64,000 nucleotides of DNA from an uncultured Actinomycetota bacterium (GTDB lineage: Bacteria; Actinomycetota; Actinomycetes; Mycobacteriales; Mycobacteriaceae). Of the stretch, positions 6,866 to 13,816 are shown piece by piece (within the stretch, counting starts at the first letter, position 1; each line of letters begins with the position of its first letter). Both the position numbers and the translations under genes were made by a program. The notes under the pieces were generated by a model. The model saw only the letters and a list, made by a program, of their open reading frames with translations. It did no database searches and was not told the DNA's origin. The DNA is taken from assembly GCA_963781685.1 (NCBI GenBank), contig CAWAGK010000017.1, forward strand, positions 108,110 through 172,109, read 5' to 3'.

Positions 6866-8071
6866 ATGACCAAACCAAAGGTCGTCTTTGATCCGTTCTC
6901 CGAGGAGTACTTCACAAATCCGTTCGATATCTACCGACGAATGCGTGAGGACGCACCGCTCTACTACGACGAGAAAGAGGACTTCTACGCGCTGACCCGC
7001 CACGAAGACGTGGCCGGCGCGCTCAAGGACCATGAGACCTTTTCCTCAAGCCGTGGTTGTGACCTGGCGATGGTGCGCAGGGGTATATCCCCCGAGCAGA
7101 AGTCGATTATTTTCATGGACCCGCCGCAGCACCGCCAAATGCGCAGCCTGCTCAACAAGGCCTTCACGCCGCGGGCCATTCAATCGCAGCACGACACAGT
7201 CGTCGAGGTCGTCGACAAATACCTGAGCGCGGCCGACCCCGACGAGTTCGACGTCGTGCAGGACTTCTCCGGGCCGTTCCCCGTTGAAGTCATCACCACG
7301 ATGGCCGGAGTGCCGGAGGAATACCGCCAACAGGTACGGCACTGGATCGACACCAGCCTGCACCGGGAACCGGGACAAATCGAAATCAGCGAAGCCGGCA
7401 TGCAGGCCAACATCGACACCGCGATGTATTACTTCGGGCTGGTGCAGGAACGGCGCGAAAACCCGCAGGACGACATGCTCAGCAAGCTGATCGCCGCCGA
7501 AATCCCCGGCGAGAATGGGCAGACTCGAAAGCTCGACGATATTGAAATATGCGGTTTTGCCACGCTTCTGGGCGGGGCCGGCGCCGAGACCGTCACAAAG
7601 TTGATCGGCAGCGCGGCGGTGCTCTTCGCCCGCAACCCAGACCAATGGGAGAAGCTGAAAGAAGACCGCAGCAAGATCCCCGGCGCCGTCGAAGAATTGT
7701 TGCGCTACGAGGGACCGGTGCAGTACAACGTCCGCTGGACCTTGAAAGAGGCACACACCAGCGGTGGCACGATTCCCGCCGGCAAGCCGGTGTTCTTGAT
7801 GAAGGCCGCGGCGAACCGCGACCCCGACGCCTTCACCAACGCCGACACCTTCGACATCGAGCGCGACCAGACCGAGGCGCAGCACCTCGGTCTGGGGTAC
7901 GGAATTCACAGCTGCCTGGGTGCGGCATTGGCTCGGATGGAAAGCAGGATCGCACTGGAAAAGCTGCTGGACTTCATGCCCCGCTACGAAGTGAATTGGG
8001 AGGGCTGCAAGCGAGTCACCATGCAGAATGTCGCGGGCTGGCTGAACGTACCGGTGAAAGTATTGCGCTAA
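6866..8071 (+). CDS. Cytochrome P450
   Basis: I-helix GGAGAETV, EELLR (ExxR), heme motif GLGYGIHSCLG. Confidence 0.95.
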   Translation: MTKPKVVFDPFSEEYFTNPFDIYRRMREDAPLYYDEKEDFYALTRHEDVAGALKDHETFSSSRGCDLAMVRRGISPEQKSIIFMDPPQHRQMRSLLNKAFTPRAIQSQHDTVVEVVDKYLSAADPDEFDVVQDFSGPFPVEVITTMAGVPEEYRQQVRHWIDTSLHREPGQIEISEAGMQANIDTAMYYFGLVQERRENPQDDMLSKLIAAEIPGENGQTRKLDDIEICGFATLLGGAGAETVTKLIGSAAVLFARNPDQWEKLKEDRSKIPGAVEELLRYEGPVQYNVRWTLKEAHTSGGTIPAGKPVFLMKAAANRDPDAFTNADTFDIERDQTEAQHLGLGYGIHSCLGAALARMESRIALEKLLDFMPRYEVNWEGCKRVTMQNVAGWLNVPVKVLR

Positions 8072-8082
8072 GGGGCCTTTGA

Positions 8083-8280
8083 ATGACGAAGAGGATCGAA
8101 GTCGACTGGGGTCTGTGCGAAAGCAACGGGGTGTGCATGGGGATCATCCCGGAGGTGTTTCGGCTCGAGGATGACGACACACTGACCGTGCTGCAGGACG
8201 AAGTCACGCCGGAGAACGAAGCACAGGTGCTGGATGCGGTCCGGCAGTGCCCGCGGCAGGCCATTTCGATCACCGAATAG
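8083..8280 (+). CDS. Ferredoxin
   Basis: CESNGVC...CPRQAI directly after the P450. Confidence 0.92.
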   Translation: MTKRIEVDWGLCESNGVCMGIIPEVFRLEDDDTLTVLQDEVTPENEAQVLDAVRQCPRQAISITE

Positions 8281-8396
8281 CTATTTCGTCGATCTATTGG
8301 CCCGACGAAAGATGTTGGGCTACATCAGAGAATTCAGATGCTGCTCGGCGAGGCCCATAAAGCGCGTCAACTGCTGGAGTTAGCTTCCCAGCGTAC

Positions 8397-8434
8397 GTGT
8401 CAGACCCATGTGGCATAATCGAATGTATGTTCGA
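8397..8434 (+). promoter_or_regulatory. DNA-damage-type promoter: RecA-NDp/PafBC-like motif plus LexA SOS-like box
   Basis: GTGTCAGAC-N8-CATAAT (8397-8419) resembles tTGTCRgtg-N8-TAnnnT; TCGAATGTATGTTCGA (8419-8434) matches TCGAAC-N4-GTTCGA at 11/12 and overlaps the ATG at 8427. Confidence 0.65.
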
Positions 8435-8640
8435 AGACCGGTCACCGACGGCGTTGGTACAACAGCTGAGGACGGCGTCGCGTGCGGAGAATCAGGCCGC
8501 AGGGCAGCGCTTGGCGGTGATCGGAGAGCTGGATTCGTTGCGCCTGCGTCAGCTCGGTGAGCGTGAAACATGGTGCACCGACACGCAGGAGGCGGTGACT
8601 GCCGAGGTAGCCGCAGCGCTGTCCATTACTCAGGCGCGCT
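8427..8640 (+). pseudogene. N-terminal fragment of REP13E12/DUF222 HNH-endonuclease-family gene
   Basis: MFEDR...ASRAENQAAGQRLAVIGEL...WCTDTQEAVTAEVAAALSITQ is the typical 13E12 N-terminus; similarity stops near 8640. Confidence 0.8.
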
Positions 8641-8966
8641 GCTTTGCATTGCCTTGTCTCCCCTTAGACCCAATCGCGCGGGTAGCGTTCTCGATGTGAT
8701 GCCGAGTAGTCGCATGTTAGCGGCGCAGTCTGACAGCGTGACGAGGTAGTCATGCTGGGAGATCGTCGCGCGCCGGTTGGCCGCCGCCGCCGAGCTGGCC
8801 GAGGTGCGAATGCCGGGCGTGGGGGCCGCAATGCGCGTACCGCTGCACATGCGGGAGGTCTTCCTCGACGAGTCGTGTTCCCCTGGACATTGACCGCTAC
8901 TCACTGCGCATCGACAATTAGCACGATGGGCGGAGGGTCCGCCTGCGGTGATAAAAGGAGTTCCTG

Positions 8967-9392
8967 ATGGCAGGCGCGTTAAGCACACAGTTCGAGAAAA
9001 TCTCCGACAGCGCGAAAACCGCCAACGACAAAATCAAAGCTGCAGGCGATAAGACCAGGGACCAGCTCGACGCCGACGTCGCCAGCGCGAGAGCCAAGGC
9101 GTCCGCAGCTGCCGACCGACTCAGCGAGAAGGCTGACGCCGCCGAAGATAAAGCTTCGTCGCGGTCGCAAGAAGTCCGCCGCAAGTGGGAGGCTCATGTC
9201 GCCGAGGTGAAGGCAAACATCGAGAAGAAGAAAGCCAAACACGACGTGAAGGAGGCCGAGAGGTCCGCCAAGCTGGCTCTGGCTTTCGCGCTCGACGCGA
9301 TTGATTTCGCACAAGCCGCCATCGACGAAGCCGAGTATGCGGCGCTTGATGCTCTGTACGCGCAAGCCGCGGCAGACTCGCGGGTCTCCTGA
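8967..9392 (+). CDS. Hypothetical alanine/lysine-rich helical protein (141 aa)
   Basis: Strong RBS AAGGAG upstream; charged, all-helical composition. Confidence 0.8.
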   Translation: MAGALSTQFEKISDSAKTANDKIKAAGDKTRDQLDADVASARAKASAAADRLSEKADAAEDKASSRSQEVRRKWEAHVAEVKANIEKKKAKHDVKEAERSAKLALAFALDAIDFAQAAIDEAEYAALDALYAQAAADSRVS

Positions 9393-9666
9393 TGTGACTG
9401 GATGCGGGTTCTTTCCGACATCGTCTGGGCGCGGCTCGGCCCTGGTCGGCTCCTAGCACACTTGAGAGGCCGGGCCGCGCCCGTCAAGGCCCGCTGATTC
9501 GGGGAGCACACGTAGAGCACACGCCCGGCCAGCACAGCGCCCGACCAGCATCTCTAAAAGTGTCTTCACCGCGTCAGGTAGCATCATCGCGTCAAAGCAC
9601 TACAGACACAGCGGATCGATAATTGGCACCTAGCCTGCGGCTAACAACGGCACGCAATGTGTACGG

Positions 9667-10164
9667 ATGACAACACCCATCGAGCACCAGTGGCGTGAAA
9701 TCAATTCAGCCGGCGGTCGGTGTCAACGTCGCCGTGTGGCGCAAGTGATTTTTGCCGGGGCTGCGGCCATCGCGATGCTCGCGCTCTTCGACGCCGTACC
9801 GCACGGTACCGGCGAAACCACGGTCGCGTTGGGGTCGGTGCGCCTGGTAGACCAGGCCACTGACTTGCCAGCGCCGCCGGCGCCAGGGGGGCCGCCGCCA
9901 GGGGTGGTGTTGGCGCCGGGGATGACATGGCCGCCGACGTGGCCGCCGGGGGCAGCATTGCCGCAGGGGGCGTCGATGGTGCTGCCCGGCGGGCTGCCGC
10001 TGCCGCCCTTGCCGCCGGGGATGGCGTTGTCGCCGGAGTTGCAACAGGAGATATCGCAGATGTACATGCAGGGCCAGGAGATGTTGGCGGCGGGGCCGCC
10101 GCCGAACGTACCGAATGAGGTCTGCCGGTACAACACGGTCAGGGTCCCCTGTCCTCCCGCTTAG
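9667..10164 (+). CDS. Proline-rich putative membrane-anchored or secreted protein
   Basis: Hydrophobic segment VIFAGAAAIAMLALF followed by a Pro/Gly-rich region and terminal Cys pair (VCRYNTVRVPCPPA). Confidence 0.6.
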   Translation: MTTPIEHQWREINSAGGRCQRRRVAQVIFAGAAAIAMLALFDAVPHGTGETTVALGSVRLVDQATDLPAPPAPGGPPPGVVLAPGMTWPPTWPPGAALPQGASMVLPGGLPLPPLPPGMALSPELQQEISQMYMQGQEMLAAGPPPNVPNEVCRYNTVRVPCPPA

Positions 10165-10206
10165 GCTGTCGGCGCCGAGCGTTGACATCGCAACGACGAT
10201 GGTGGG

Positions 10207-10356
10207 ATGGACCATGACCGGTATCTCCTGCACGAGGTACACGCCGCCAAACTGGCCACCGACCTCACCTTCGGGATCGTTTCCACAGTCCTAATGTGGC
10301 GGCATCGCGTGGTACCGGCACTCGTGATCGCGTTCTTCAAAAGGTTCTTCGCGTAA
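10207..10356 (+). pseudogene. Short, probably truncated membrane-protein ORF (49 aa)
   Basis: MDHDRYLLHEVHAAKLATDLTFGIVSTVLMWRHRVVPALVIAFFKRFFA, read by hand. Confidence 0.35.
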
Positions 10357-10484
10357 TCGCTATCACCGGCTGCACAAGTTGCTTACGGCACGCGAAATGA
10401 GTTTCGCCGAAACCCACCGCTACGGCGACGTGACGGCGAAGAACCAAACCCGCCTTGAGCGTATCCGGCAACTTCACCCGCCGG

Positions 10485-11318
10485 TTACTTCTCCAGCGTG
10501 TACTGGGCGATATCGAGGTAGCCGTCGCGGAACCGCTCCGCACATCCACTCAGGTATCTGTCATAGCGGTTGTAGACTGCTTCACCCTGTAGCGCGATGG
10601 CCTCATCCTTATGTTCCCTCAGCGCCGCCGACCATATATCCAAGGTCTTCACATAGGATGATTGCAGCTGCTGGACGCGGGTGCAGGTGTAGCCGACCTT
10701 AGCGGCATAGTCTGGCACCATATCGAGTGTTGGGAGCCGACAGCCGGGGAAAATCTCATCGAGCATGAACTTGGTGAAGCGTGCCAGCTCGAAGGTCAGT
10801 GGCAAACCCTTTGCGATCATCTCTTTGGCGGTCAAGATGGTGATCGTGTGCAGCAGCATCACTCCGTCAGCCGGCATCGACTTATAGGTGATGTCGAAGA
10901 AGTCGTCATAGCGGTTGAAGTCGAAGTGCTCGAACGCGCCGATCGACACGATCCGGTCAACCTTGCCGTCCCATTCTTCCCAGCCTCGCAACTGGACCGA
11001 CTTCGAGCGCTTGCTCGGGTTCTTGTCGAGAAGGTCTTGAACGTGGGCGAGCTGGTTCTTACTCAGCGTCAGACCGATGACATTGACGTCGTACTTGTCC
11101 AGGGCTCGGTTAATACAGGCACCCCAGCCACAGCCGATATCGAGCAGCGTCATCCCAGGCTCCAGACCCAGCTTGCCGAGCGACAGGTCAATCTTCGCGA
11201 GCTGTGCCTCTTCGAGGGTCATGTCTTCCCGCTCGAAGTACGCACAGCTGTAACTCTGCGTCGGGTCTTGGAACAGCCGGAAGAACTCGTCAGACAGGTC
11301 GTAGTGCGCCTGCGCCAT
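10485..11318 (-). CDS. Mycolic acid cyclopropane synthase / methyltransferase (CmaA/MmaA/UmaA family)
   Basis: QAHYDLSDEFF, YSCAYFER, LLDIGCGWG, DRIVSIGAFEHF, IFPG, final QYTLEK; the true start may be a few codons upstream. Confidence 0.93.
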   Translation of the reverse strand: MAQAHYDLSDEFFRLFQDPTQSYSCAYFEREDMTLEEAQLAKIDLSLGKLGLEPGMTLLDIGCGWGACINRALDKYDVNVIGLTLSKNQLAHVQDLLDKNPSKRSKSVQLRGWEEWDGKVDRIVSIGAFEHFDFNRYDDFFDITYKSMPADGVMLLHTITILTAKEMIAKGLPLTFELARFTKFMLDEIFPGCRLPTLDMVPDYAAKVGYTCTRVQQLQSSYVKTLDIWSAALREHKDEAIALQGEAVYNRYDRYLSGCAERFRDGYLDIAQYTLEK

Positions 11319-11664
11319 CTCAAACTTGGGGATTAGTTTCCTGGAAATTACATCACGCCCTTCGCTCGAACCGTGTAGAGACGCCTGCCCACAAGCTACT
11401 GCGTCACAAGCCTTTATTCAAAAGTTCGGCGACTACCTGGTGCGATGAGCTTCAAGAAGTGAGCCCGAGACCCGGGCCTTTCGCTGAGCCTCGGGGGGTA
11501 TCTCAAACGAGTTACCGTGCCGTCCGGCCGCTGTTCGTCGCGCCATGCACAAGTCCCCGTTGAGGGCGTAGCGCGTCTCCGAGAACATTGCGGAAGTGTA
11601 AGCCGAGGGGCGAGTCGAGTTTCGGTGTCTTGCGAGGTGGCTATTAAAGCGTTCTTTAGCCAGT

Positions 11665-12008
11665 AGGTGCCATCATTTGATAAAGACGTTCTGGGGCTGG
11701 TCTGATCGACAATTGCCCGACGCCACCGTGATCTGGACATCACCGTCGGGGCATACCTATGTGACCACCCCGGGCAGCGCGTTGCTGTTCCCAAGCCTGA
11801 GCGCACCCACCGGCGCGCTAGACCCGGTCCGGATCGGCCTCGCTGCACCGACCGCACCGCGATGGTACCCACACGCCGACGCACCCGCGCGCAAAACCGC
11901 GCGGCACGCATCACCGTCGAACGCCGGCGCAATCAGCGCGTCCGACTGCGTGAACAGCACCGCGAAAAACTGCGGATCATCGCCAACGACGAGCCGCCGC
12001 CTTTCTAA
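11665..12008 (+). pseudogene. C-terminal fragment of REP13E12/DUF222 HNH gene (frameshifted)
   Basis: [45 protein letters not shown], then in another frame [22 protein letters not shown]...NDEPPPF* (TAA 12006-12008). Confidence 0.85.
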
Positions 12009-12023: not shown

Positions 12024-12311
12024 TCAGCCAAATCCGGAGATGATCACCGCGTTGCAGTCCGCGGCGGCTTGGCGCAGCTTCGCTGCGTTCTGGTAGGCCT
12101 CGGACTCATACCACGCGCGGGCCGCATCCACCGACTCGAATTCGAGTAACACGGTCTGGTCGCCATGCCAGCTGCCTTCGACGACTTTGGGTGCGGTGTC
12201 CACCGCGAGGATGTTGACCCCACCCATCGCCGCGCCGGCGGCTCGCCCGTACGCCTTCATGCCTTCCGGATCCTTGATGGCCTCAGTGAGGATGACGTAA
12301 CCCTTCGGCAT
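12024..12311 (-). CDS. DUF1330 domain protein
   Basis: MPKGYVI...VVEGSW...[20 protein letters not shown]; RBS AAAGGAG. Confidence 0.9.
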
Positions 12312-12330
12312 AGTCCACGATCTCCTTTGG

Positions 12331-12519
12331 TCAGCGTTCGGCGATGGCCTGTTCGGGGCAGCAATCGATGGCCTCTTGGGTGGCCGCCTCGAATTCCGTT
12401 GGCACATCGGAATCGATCGCCTCGGCGTAGCCATCGTCGGTCAGGTTGAACACATCCTCACACAGCGTGACGCACACGCCGTGGCCGCGGCAGCGCTGGT
12501 CGTCAACCCAGACTTTCAT
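12331..12519 (-). CDS. Ferredoxin
   Basis: CRGHGVC...CPEQAI; ATG overlaps the P450 stop. Confidence 0.92.
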   Translation of the reverse strand: MKVWVDDQRCRGHGVCVTLCEDVFNLTDDGYAEAIDSDVPTEFEAATQEAIDCCPEQAIAER

Positions 12520-13787
12520 GCCGGCGTGAACTCCAGGTGCAGCTCGGTCAGGCCGCGCAGGATGTAGGTCGGAACATATTGGTAGCGACGATCATTCGCC
12601 GGCCCGTGAACGCGTTCGTTGATCCGGATGTCGGACGTGCGGTCCAGCAGCCGCTCGATGGCCACCCGCGTTTCGGCACGCGCCAATGGCGCACCGGGGC
12701 AGCTGTGAATGCCCCGCCCAAACGAGATGTGCTGGCGGGCATTCTTTCTGGCCGGATCGAATGTGGTGGGGTCTTCGAACCGGCGCGGATCGCGGTTGGC
12801 CGCGGCCTGCACGACCATCACCGTTGTGCCAGCTGGCAAGTCGACTCCGCCGATGTTGACCGGCCTGCGGTTCATCCGGAAATCTCCCTTAACCGGGCTC
12901 TCGATGCGAAGCGACTCTTCGATGAAGTTCGGAATCAGGCTGCGGTCCTTGCGCAACTGCGCCTGGATGTCGGGACGCTCCCCCATGGTCTGCAGCGCGG
13001 CGCCCAGCAGTCGCACGGTGGTTTCCTGACCCGCCGAGAAGACGTTGCTCGCGACGCGCGCGACATCCTCGACATCAGGAGTCGAGCCGTCGGGGTAGGT
13101 GGCGGTCGCGAGGCCGGTCAGCACGTCGTCGCGGGGCTCACGGCGGCGGTCCCGGACATAGTCGGAGAAAAGACCGTAGAGGAATTCCAGCGGGCTGTGC
13201 GCCAGCGATTCCTTGCCGGTGCCCCCGACGCCGCCCCCCGAGTGCTCACGGATGCCTTTGATGAACTTGTCGCGATCTTCCATGGGCACGCCCAGCAGAT
13301 CGGCGATGACCAGCAGCGTGAAGGGACCCGCGAAGCCCTTGATCCATTCGCCTTCGCCAGGAGCCAGGAATCCGTCGAGCACTTGGTCGGCGAGCACCCA
13401 CATGGCGTCCTCGTTCTCCTTGAGGCGCTTCGGGGTGATCAGCCGCATCAGCAGGGAGCGGTGGTTGGTGTGGGTCGGCGGATCAAGTGTGGGCAGCTGG
13501 TCGCTGAACGGCAGCTCGTCGCGATGTTGCTCGATCAGCTCGGTGACGTCGTCACCCTCGAGCGGCACCGGAAAGCCGGGAAACGGACCGGTCACCGAGA
13601 TGCACGACGACCACGTCTCGGCGTCGTTGAGCACGGCGCAGGCCTCGTCCCAACCCGTCACCATCGTGACGTCGTGGTGGCTTTCCCGGGTCACCGGGCA
13701 CTGCTGCCGCAGCGCCTCGTAGTAGGGGTACGGGTCCGCGATGAGCTCGCTGCCGCGGAAGAAGTCCAACTCGGTGAAGTCATTCAC
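12516..13787 (-). CDS. Cytochrome P450 (CYP150-like)
   Basis: FSAGQETT I-helix, EESLR, SFGRGIHSCPG; probable GTG start at 13787 (ORF open to 13805); subfamily from memory only. Confidence 0.93.
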   Translation of the reverse strand: MNDFTELDFFRGSELIADPYPYYEALRQQCPVTRESHHDVTMVTGWDEACAVLNDAETWSSCISVTGPFPGFPVPLEGDDVTELIEQHRDELPFSDQLPTLDPPTHTNHRSLLMRLITPKRLKENEDAMWVLADQVLDGFLAPGEGEWIKGFAGPFTLLVIADLLGVPMEDRDKFIKGIREHSGGGVGGTGKESLAHSPLEFLYGLFSDYVRDRRREPRDDVLTGLATATYPDGSTPDVEDVARVASNVFSAGQETTVRLLGAALQTMGERPDIQAQLRKDRSLIPNFIEESLRIESPVKGDFRMNRRPVNIGGVDLPAGTTVMVVQAAANRDPRRFEDPTTFDPARKNARQHISFGRGIHSCPGAPLARAETRVAIERLLDRTSDIRINERVHGPANDRRYQYVPTYILRGLTELHLEFTPA

Positions 13788-13816
13788 TATCGCGCACCGC
13801 TCCAATCTCGATCTGT

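Follow-up and report, generated by a model that had tools for sequence, protein, structure and literature searches.

How does a gene of the 13E12 family come to have its two ends parted by about 3 kb of unrelated DNA? The question is raised by a Mycobacterium-type metagenome-assembled contig (CAWAGK010000017.1), of which we analysed a stretch of 64 kb, referred to below as the window. A first-pass annotation had recognised the 5' and 3' fragments of a DUF222-HNH gene of the REP13E12 type, collinear on the same strand and ~3 kb apart, and had proposed that cargo was captured by replacement of the middle of the gene. The collinear arrangement was borne out (8397-8634 and 11671-12008), and the explanation that we favour, with a probability of roughly 0.6, is that the locus is a decayed array of single-gene cassettes that entered a 13E12 gene at the final His-His codons of its HNH motif. 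Genes of this kind are among the most abundant unexplained repeats of mycobacteria, M. tuberculosis alone having 19 DUF222 genes (PMC13157036), and have so far been known only as the attachment target of the prophage phiRv1 and as inversion substrates. Related loci were gathered by a synteny scan in which the neighbouring P450 gene was compared with species-representative genomes, yielding 80 syntenic loci, with both flanks visible in 72. L-numbers denote fetched related loci and X-numbers public metagenome runs. The parts on which the argument turns are as follows.

8397-8634, plus strand: truncated 5' end of a 13E12/DUF222 gene, comprising the upstream region (8397-8426) and the first 69-70 codons
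10334-10385, plus strand: first copy of a candidate recombination site, of inter-cassette type (left arm AAAAGGTTCTTCGCGTAATCGCTAT, core CACC, right arm GGCTGCACAAG..)
10368-10442, minus strand: 3' flank and last codons of a cassette with a lipJ-like lipase/adenylate-cyclase gene, placed by profile and alignments
10437-11546, minus strand: block replacing the cyclase interior, with a gene of the cyclopropane mycolic acid synthase family (10485-11318; NF040660)
11547-11631, minus strand: first ~14 codons of the cyclase cassette (MFSETRYALNGDL..; ATG at 11588) and its 5' leader, placed by alignments
11632-11690, plus strand: second copy of the candidate site, at the cassette/13E12 junction (AAAGCGTTCTTTAGCCAGTAGGTGC - CATCAT - TTGATAAAGACGTTCTGG)
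11671-12008, plus strand: displaced C-terminal 13E12 fragment ending EPPPF*, placed by database matches and comparison with L003

The N-terminal fragment (8427-8634; 69-70 residues) matches positions 2-53 of Pfam DUF222 (PF02720, cut-off 24.4 bits; E 4.8e-7, 29.8 bits, hit span 8397-8699), which is only the initial sixth of that domain. It aligns with the 5' ends of six full-length 13E12-type genes at 72-76% nucleotide identity, from a conserved upstream stretch beginning at ~8397 (TGTCAGACCC..CATAATCGAATGTATGTTCGA) to 8634-8637, where homology ends. This break has no counterpart in other loci and no recombination site near it; it looks like a secondary deletion, in which the middle of the receiving (platform) gene and the first junction were later lost. 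The C-terminal fragment lies downstream in the same orientation and keeps the conserved tail (KTFWGW...EPPPF). When the two fragments were fused and compared with the protein database (E<=1e-5), the matches were mostly C-terminal, and an apparent coverage of 81% reflects alignment extension, not short N+C proteins; all matches to the second part of the query were C-termini of DUF222-HNH proteins, to which the fragment is 60-92% identical (952 database proteins). As first reported, the likeness resumes exactly at the terminal His-His codons (~11671). Of the HNH motif, C..C..DH...N..LC..HH, only the terminal HH is kept, and the window fragments have no hit to PF01844; in the full-length relative L058 this domain occupies residues 317-359. 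The first 129 nt of the fragment are 97.7% identical to L003, its closest relative, which has the same flank. Compared with L003, one nucleotide of a GGG run near 11831 is deleted, which could be a frameshift or a long-read homopolymer error. A single frame of ~460-490 codons is not kept, with ~280 central codons gone and the frame apparently broken near 11831. The window 13E12 is a gene remnant, and the 64 kb hold no further copy.

The right boundary of the split is a recurrent, precise junction. A ~30-nt motif stands before CAYCAY in the window, in L002, L003 and L004 and in other loci, and the sequence further upstream is unrelated from one to the next. The junction is repeated in at least 19 diverged orphan fragments, and many short database proteins begin their 13E12 likeness at this one residue, preceded by LKCSSASRCHH and not by NLKCLCRLHH. 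A profile of the ~52-nt site, run with nhmmer over the whole window and the fetched loci, matches the window at two places only (10334-10367, E 7e-5; 11632-11676, E 2.5e-8). The cargo had at first been described as having no flanking direct repeat. These two diverged ~52-nt copies, at 10334-10385 and 11632-11690, correct that description; a generic repeat finder did not detect them in the window. The fetched loci contain 71 sites (58 distinct) with the consensus TnAAGTGTTCTTnnGCnAnTCGnTGC CAnCAn CTnnnnAAnnCnTTCnGG, and information content is 1.1 bit per position inside the site compared with 0.15-0.19 in its flanks. The flanks form 45 upstream and 41 downstream clusters, one flank pairing with up to five partners in either direction, and genes without relation to one another, in either orientation, meet at one and the same nucleotide of the site.

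The clearest single comparison comes from the chromosomal locus of the window itself, which offers an occupied/unoccupied pair. In L068 the 13E12 gene is uninterrupted (..NLKALCRH-HH..), and the orphans L053 (96%) and L034 (92%) match it from CATCAC rightwards and are unalignable with it leftwards. The arms of the site occur in four combinations. Full genes read ..AAGTGCCTGTGCCGCCTTCATCAT and then TTGATCAAGACGTTCTGG; orphans share the right side of full genes and have the conserved left arm in front of it; L093, L133 and L147 have the 13E12 N-terminal and middle parts up to ..CRFH, followed by GTGCACAAGCG.., the conserved 3' flank of the lipJ-like cyclase gene; and tandem cassettes (window 10334, L104, L129, L132) join the conserved left arm to that cyclase flank. 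L133 is one cyclase cassette simply inserted at the His-His codons. Both hybrid junction types exist as well as donor-type and target-type sites, with the junction inside a REP13E12 gene, and the boundary of the C-terminal fragment shows the marks of an att-type, site-specific junction. The motif also lies beside unrelated genes and a phage-like remnant, which rules out that it is a cyclase promoter only.

Between the two site copies of the window, both ends of a ~1.5-kb cyclase cassette are present. At the 3' end, positions 10368-10442 are 85-93% identical to the sequence that immediately follows the stop codon of the cyclase in over 12 loci, the only window hit of a cyclase 3'-flank profile falls at 10371-10425 (nhmmer E 2e-19), and a contig of run X2 passes from 10442 into an intact cyclase. 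At the other end, the cyclase start aligns from 11547 on with L003, L034, L053, L082 and ~90 cyclase loci, and contigs of run X6 have an intact cyclase before 11550. Window-specific DNA reaches its right edge at ~11546, in cyclase codon ~14, and this edge is common to the same four loci and ~90 others. About 14 N-terminal and 12 C-terminal codons of the cyclase remain, and from these two ends the synthase gene appears to have replaced the inside of an older cassette. The layout of the first site copy is that of the sites between tandem cassettes in L104, L129, L132 and L113. A contig of run X1 spanning 10344-10466 independently supports the succession of site, cyclase 3' end and synthase start; elsewhere the sequence of this run differs after position 11672. 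The intact cyclase of L082 scores 374 with the LipJ model NF058673, below the curated cut-off of 800, and the cyclase is LipJ-like in architecture only. In the cyclase remnant, TACACT (window 11589-11600) precedes the ATG by six bases and there is no Shine-Dalgarno sequence; the start region is conserved in ~90 cyclase loci, and the pattern would be that of a leaderless mycobacterial transcript.

Upstream of the cassette the cargo falls into further blocks.

8635-8782, no strand assigned: 148 bp of unassigned filler separating the 13E12 break from the following block, without a match in any fetched locus or run
8783-9529, plus strand: block with the gene of a 141-residue helical protein (8967-9392), known from metagenome contigs
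9607-10171, plus strand: block with the gene of a 165-residue Pro-rich protein (9667-10164), matched by L126
10186-10356, plus strand: 3' fragment of a membrane-like open reading frame (ORF; ..VSTVLMWRHRVVPALVIAFFKRFFA*), seen in translation and running into the first recombination site

Four other soil metagenomes have contigs that are 95-100% identical to 8783-9511/9529 and diverge on both sides; the helical protein has no family match except a weak apolipoprotein-like one. The Pro-rich block, whose product is probably secreted, shares 77% nucleotide identity with L126 (10057-10546), near a 13E12 gene and two cyclase genes, and has no other match among the fetched loci and runs. No family match was obtained for the membrane-like fragment. 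The synthase is assigned to its family by NF040660 (460.8 bits; curated cut-off 390) and Pfam CMAS (E 2.4e-106). A 99.4% identical copy of its block lies in L165, another metagenome-assembled genome, and copies of 95-99% identity lie in four soil runs, each with other flanks; orthologues at 84-87% identity occupy a conserved STAS-CMAS-MMPL home context. The unrelated genes between the fragments are those described at the outset (helical protein, Pro-rich protein, membrane ORF fragment, cyclopropane synthase), and together they form a mosaic cargo, in which at least four blocks each have relatives of their own. A tblastx comparison of the window cargo with all loci returned noise only in this GC-rich DNA. 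The synthase block was found in runs X1, X2, X5 and X6 and in L165 in at least three sequence contexts with similar ends (10437-10479 and 11546), and it therefore behaves like a discrete mobile unit of its own. G+C content at 10400-11600 is 56-58% compared with 65-70% in the adjoining backbone, which fits recent acquisition.

Arrays of the same construction occur elsewhere, with cassettes shuffled between them. L171 carries a cyclase remnant, a glyoxalase, an SRPBCC protein and an alpha/beta hydrolase, followed by a 13E12 tail; the L104 array includes SRPBCC and a PAS-ANTAR regulator; L132/L136 has three cyclases; and further single genes separated by the site were found in L149 and L148. The SRPBCC cassette stands behind three different neighbours. 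Cargo types comprise cyclase, nitroreductase, glyoxalase, SRPBCC, hydrolase and regulator genes and, in the window, a methyltransferase. A literature search found no description of such 13E12 cassette arrays, which does not in itself prove novelty; the stacking of single-gene cassettes at the 13E12 His-His codons of soil mycobacteria is recurrent and, it appears, has not been described before. One cassette of ~600 bp encodes a Ddn-like (deazaflavin-dependent) nitroreductase of the TIGR00026 family ending ..IPVFRLKPR. It sits inside orphan 13E12 tails (L082 5537-6175; L159 ~2170-2850; L155 ~2650-2700), where insertion has taken place after ..LPDGTVI, at a second point that differs from the His-His site.

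The chromosomal setting of the window locus is itself variable. It is limited by two backbone genes.

8083-8280, plus strand: left flank, a 65-residue 4Fe-4S ferredoxin gene, the last backbone gene (Pfam Fer4_15; synteny)
12024-12311, minus strand: right flank, a DUF1330 gene, the first backbone gene after the variable site (Pfam DUF1330, E 4e-27; synteny)

The first-pass annotation had raised the possibility that the cargo is syntenic backbone and had advised looking for an empty site or intact allele in relatives. The window cargo occurs in none of the 80 related loci. The site is empty, with the ferredoxin and DUF1330 genes 4-47 bp apart, in 43 of the 72 loci with both flanks, and the other 29 hold variable inserts of 0.1-4.6 kb of very different DNA. 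With the cargo absent from relatives and so many sites empty, it follows that the cargo is not backbone; the ferredoxin/DUF1330 interval is a hotspot. Intact alleles exist as well, in the uninterrupted gene of L068 and in L058, where a 462-residue 13E12 gene is the sole insert. L025, L049 and L067 carry 13E12 with an insertion sequence or other genes, and further inserts encode a permease, a phosphoesterase, dehydrogenases and secreted proteins. Three DUF222(-HNH) subfamilies share this spot in different lineages (L011 11765-13270, L054 11806-13480, L058 11806-13511), which points to mobility of entire DUF222 genes, with a preference for it; the L058 unit of ~1420 bp runs from the conserved upstream box through the stop codon.

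Did the two fragments belong to one gene? Their nearest-paralogue identity ranks do not discriminate between one source gene and two. We regard them as probably the two ends of a single platform gene, because L068, L058 and L025 carry one resident 13E12 gene at the locus and because the window has a cassette-type flank after the inter-cassette site. Under an alternative that we hold to be rather unlikely, the N-terminal fragment derives from a full gene upstream of the cyclase, the C-terminal fragment is an older orphan, and a deletion or replacement ran from codon 71 to the cyclase. L082, at the same locus, has just this arrangement: a complete 13E12 gene is followed by a convergent cyclase, whose stop codon is 16 bp from that of 13E12, and then by the junction and an orphan tail. 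Full 13E12 genes adjoin the cyclase in L087, L162, L127 and L159 too. However, the window cyclase has its cassette-type 3' flank behind an inter-cassette site (10334-10442), the gap of 10-25 bp to the 13E12 stop codon that marks L082-type loci is missing, and the resident 13E12 is single in the three loci named above. This alternative is in any case a variant of the cassette explanation and compatible with a site-specific mechanism.

A second alternative, to which we give little credence, denies that the ~52-nt repeats are recombination sites. They would be regulatory or 'REP-like' elements or degenerate copies of the HNH region, and the arrays would have grown by tandem duplication and unequal homologous crossover. 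Both arms do resemble the 13E12 HNH region, and the leaderless cyclase start follows the site at a distance of 45-85 bp, which would suit a regulatory element. No recombinase was seen, and six sites folded as single-stranded DNA showed no special fold (z-scores -0.21 to +0.98). Against this stand the joining of unrelated genes in both orientations at one nucleotide, the pairing of one flank with up to five different partners, the occupied/unoccupied pair that breaks exactly at CATCAC, and the presence of the site next to a phage-like element without a cyclase.

It is very doubtful that a foreign segment of 3 kb took the place of the central ~840 bp of 13E12 in one step, the N- and C-terminal parts acting as homologous arms. 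The two fragments do share one strand and follow each other as in an intact gene, and homologous recombination is documented to act on 13E12 copies in M. tuberculosis (PMC13157036). However, exchange between such copies would yield intact chimeras and not truncated genes; the right limit of window-specific DNA falls in the cyclase gene and not in 13E12; in L003, L034 and L053 the same C-fragment junction, with the cyclase start, is older than the cargo; and the cargo is itself composite, enclosing a recombination site and the two ends of an earlier cassette. Of the capture model proposed initially, the role of 13E12 as a landing pad holds, whereas the fragments did not serve as arms of a one-step replacement of the middle, given the edge in the cyclase (~11546) and the mosaic cargo.

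The link to phiRv1 drawn in the first-pass annotation proved apt. This prophage integrates into REP13E12 by means of a serine integrase (Bibb & Hatfull 2002, as cited in PMC3986857 and PMC10654092), and its published 12-bp common core is GGTTGGCCGTGG (PMC3986857). The att-type features of the junction are one point of contact, and five loci (L174-L178) provide another: in them the same junction lies directly behind a remnant with HK97-type major head, scaffold-like and helix-turn-helix proteins. Since the junction abuts this capsid remnant, the site is linked to phiRv1-like elements. In L178 (33-kb contig) the capsid-element context is a remnant without an integrase and without the 5' part of 13E12. 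The capsid family is widespread on ~11-kb contigs. Many contigs of public runs with the HK97-type capsid of the L177 element (proteins P0243-P0356) measure 10.6-11.5 kb, a size comparable to that of phiRv1, and could represent complete satellite-like elements, possibly in excised form, in Mycolicibacterium, Gordonia and Nocardia. That the window cargo is itself a degraded phiRv1-like prophage or satellite integrated in 13E12 would agree with the published target and with the capsid-bearing remnants ending at the same junction, but is highly improbable: no cargo ORF matches a PHROG family, no phage structural gene is present among them, and the cargo consists of metabolic and secreted-protein genes with chromosomal relatives. 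Family scans (Pfam, NCBIfam, phage families) also found no integrase, transposase or other recombinase in the window, in line with the initial observation that neither of the first two lies between the fragments.

A misjoining of repeats during metagenome assembly scarcely merits belief, for although the window comes from such an assembly and the public runs examined leave 8334-8735, most of 9540-10343 and 11684-11951 uncovered, the stretch from 11547 to beyond 12600 is confirmed by L003, which stems from another sample, the X1 contig crosses site, cyclase 3' end and synthase start at 10344-10466, and every piece fits the pattern of many independent loci.

For the favoured cassette-array explanation, we infer the following order of events. 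The hypervariable spot between the convergent ferredoxin and DUF1330 genes would once have held a 13E12 gene, in which a presumed recombination site covers the final His-His codons of the HNH motif. Cassettes, each of a single gene, would enter there, with a ~30-nt conserved left arm (AAGTGTTCTTnnGCCAGTCGGTGC), a CAYCAY core and a right arm resembling the start of the 13E12 tail. With insertion, the former 3' end of the gene would be pushed downstream and left as an orphan, and repeated insertions would build an array. The window would then read, in order, as the 5' 70 codons of the platform, degraded mosaic cargo, the site at 10334-10385, the cyclase cassette, the site at 11632-11690 and the decaying tail. 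Later the cyclase reading frame would have been overwritten by the cyclopropane-synthase gene (10437-11546), and the central 280 codons of 13E12 would have been lost with the first junction in a deletion ending at 8634. The most likely enzyme would be a large serine integrase of the phiRv1 family acting in trans; that of phiRv1 itself is Rv1586c of M. tuberculosis. Alternatively, the 13E12 protein could act, as it has an HNH domain, is SOS/LexA-induced in M. tuberculosis and always stands at the head of the array. No relative of this protein was found in the PDB.

Several results weigh against this explanation. Neither the window nor the surroundings of any array examined with annotated neighbours yielded a recombinase gene, and no circular or excised form of a cassette was seen. 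Viral contigs searched with two degenerate junction patterns, plasmids searched with the junction and tail, and phage records searched with the capsid-element DNA gave no match. The phiRv1 core is absent at all junctions, and its placement on the His-His codons is our assumption. The junctions at 8634 and 11546 are without independent read support, in a contig assembled from a metagenome. Finally, in L082, L087, L162, L127 and L159 the cyclase has a full 13E12 gene as its immediate neighbour. Such loci would fit the cassette-array explanation only if cassettes can carry a replacement tail. Cassettes may indeed bring a tail that re-caps the platform, in which case the short right arms would be worn-down tails. 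As to the core, the best fit of its reverse complement, to TCGGTGCCATCA, covers 7/12 positions, and a search over all loci gave chance matches only, in GC-rich genes. What we take to be the phiRv1 attP arm (..CTGCTGAAGAACATTCC) resembles the left arm here, a likeness that is not used as evidence.

The arrays seem to extend the known theme of phiRv1/REP13E12 integration and to be new in themselves. As in phiRv1 integration, the target is a 13E12 repeat gene, splitting leaves partial 13E12 on both sides, junctions are precise, and a capsid-bearing phiRv1-like remnant ends at the same junction (L174-L178). In contrast to phiRv1, the units here are single genes of 0.5-1.5 kb without integrase, excisionase or phage genes, they are stacked in arrays, and the phiRv1 core is missing.

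To our knowledge, classical integrons are not to be expected in mycobacteria. With integrons the arrays share single-gene cassettes parted by a short conserved site, one platform gene, and cassettes held in common between arrays. The platform family is, moreover, SOS/LexA-induced in M. tuberculosis (PMC3381160, as reported in PMC13157036), as intI is in integrons. Unlike integrons, the window and the annotated loci have no IntI tyrosine recombinase, the ~52-nt repeats are direct and lack an attC hairpin (fold z ~0), the attachment point lies inside the platform coding sequence, cassette genes occur in both orientations, and the cyclase, at least, is inserted together with a start region of its own. 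We advance only tentatively the broader idea that 13E12 genes are platforms of an integron-like capture system, with ~52-nt double-stranded sites, re-capping, arrays that record the history of capture, and catalysis by phiRv1-family integrases in trans or by the SOS-induced 13E12 protein. If it were true, the large orphan DUF222-HNH family would gain a function.

Rhs/CDI (contact-dependent inhibition) loci offer another parallel, in which cargo stands behind a full gene and leads on to another copy of that gene's C-terminus, truncated at the 5' end and starting from a fixed junction motif, and orphans accumulate and decay. Here, in contrast, the tail is conserved across the family and is not a variable toxin, there is no immunity-gene logic, and the cargo consists of unrelated metabolic and signalling genes (cyclase, glyoxalase, SRPBCC, hydrolase, methyltransferase). 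Islands that target gene ends or tRNA genes and bring a replacement 3' end are similar in that the right arm mimics the start of the 13E12 tail and that the platform gene of L082-type loci is complete again after insertion, presumably through restoration; they differ in that most internal copies here measure only 24-60 nt.

The loci show that one point of the 13E12 gene has been reused repeatedly to stack small cassettes without an integrase, including, in the window, one with a predicted mycolic-acid-modifying methyltransferase. If the cassette-array explanation holds, the arrays offer a concrete, testable route of gene gain in mycobacteria. They would also explain the many ~110-residue 'hypothetical' 13E12 tail fragments in databases, which annotation should read as junction scars and not as decayed paralogues. 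The 52-nt site provides a sequence model with which any mycobacterial genome can be scanned.

Some minor observations concern the surroundings of the hotspot. The cyclase arrays of L132 (1-1224), L136 (2-1639) and L104 (1-756) start right behind a phosphoesterase gene ending ..NDMYAPPMNAFWK, and the same gene occupies the ferredoxin/DUF1330 hotspot in L075 and L015. Given this common gene, the three arrays may belong to this very hotspot. Over the DUF1330 gene, the longest ORF (window 12024-12434, 136 residues) has a basic, Pro/Arg-rich N-terminal extension, which is probably not translated, since gene callers and relatives use the 95-residue form. The variable site is bracketed by two convergent pairs of a P450 and a small ferredoxin (window 6866-8280 and 12331-13805), with proteins of 401 and 65 residues on the left and 429 and 62 residues on the right, and this bracket is conserved in ~70 Mycobacterium species.

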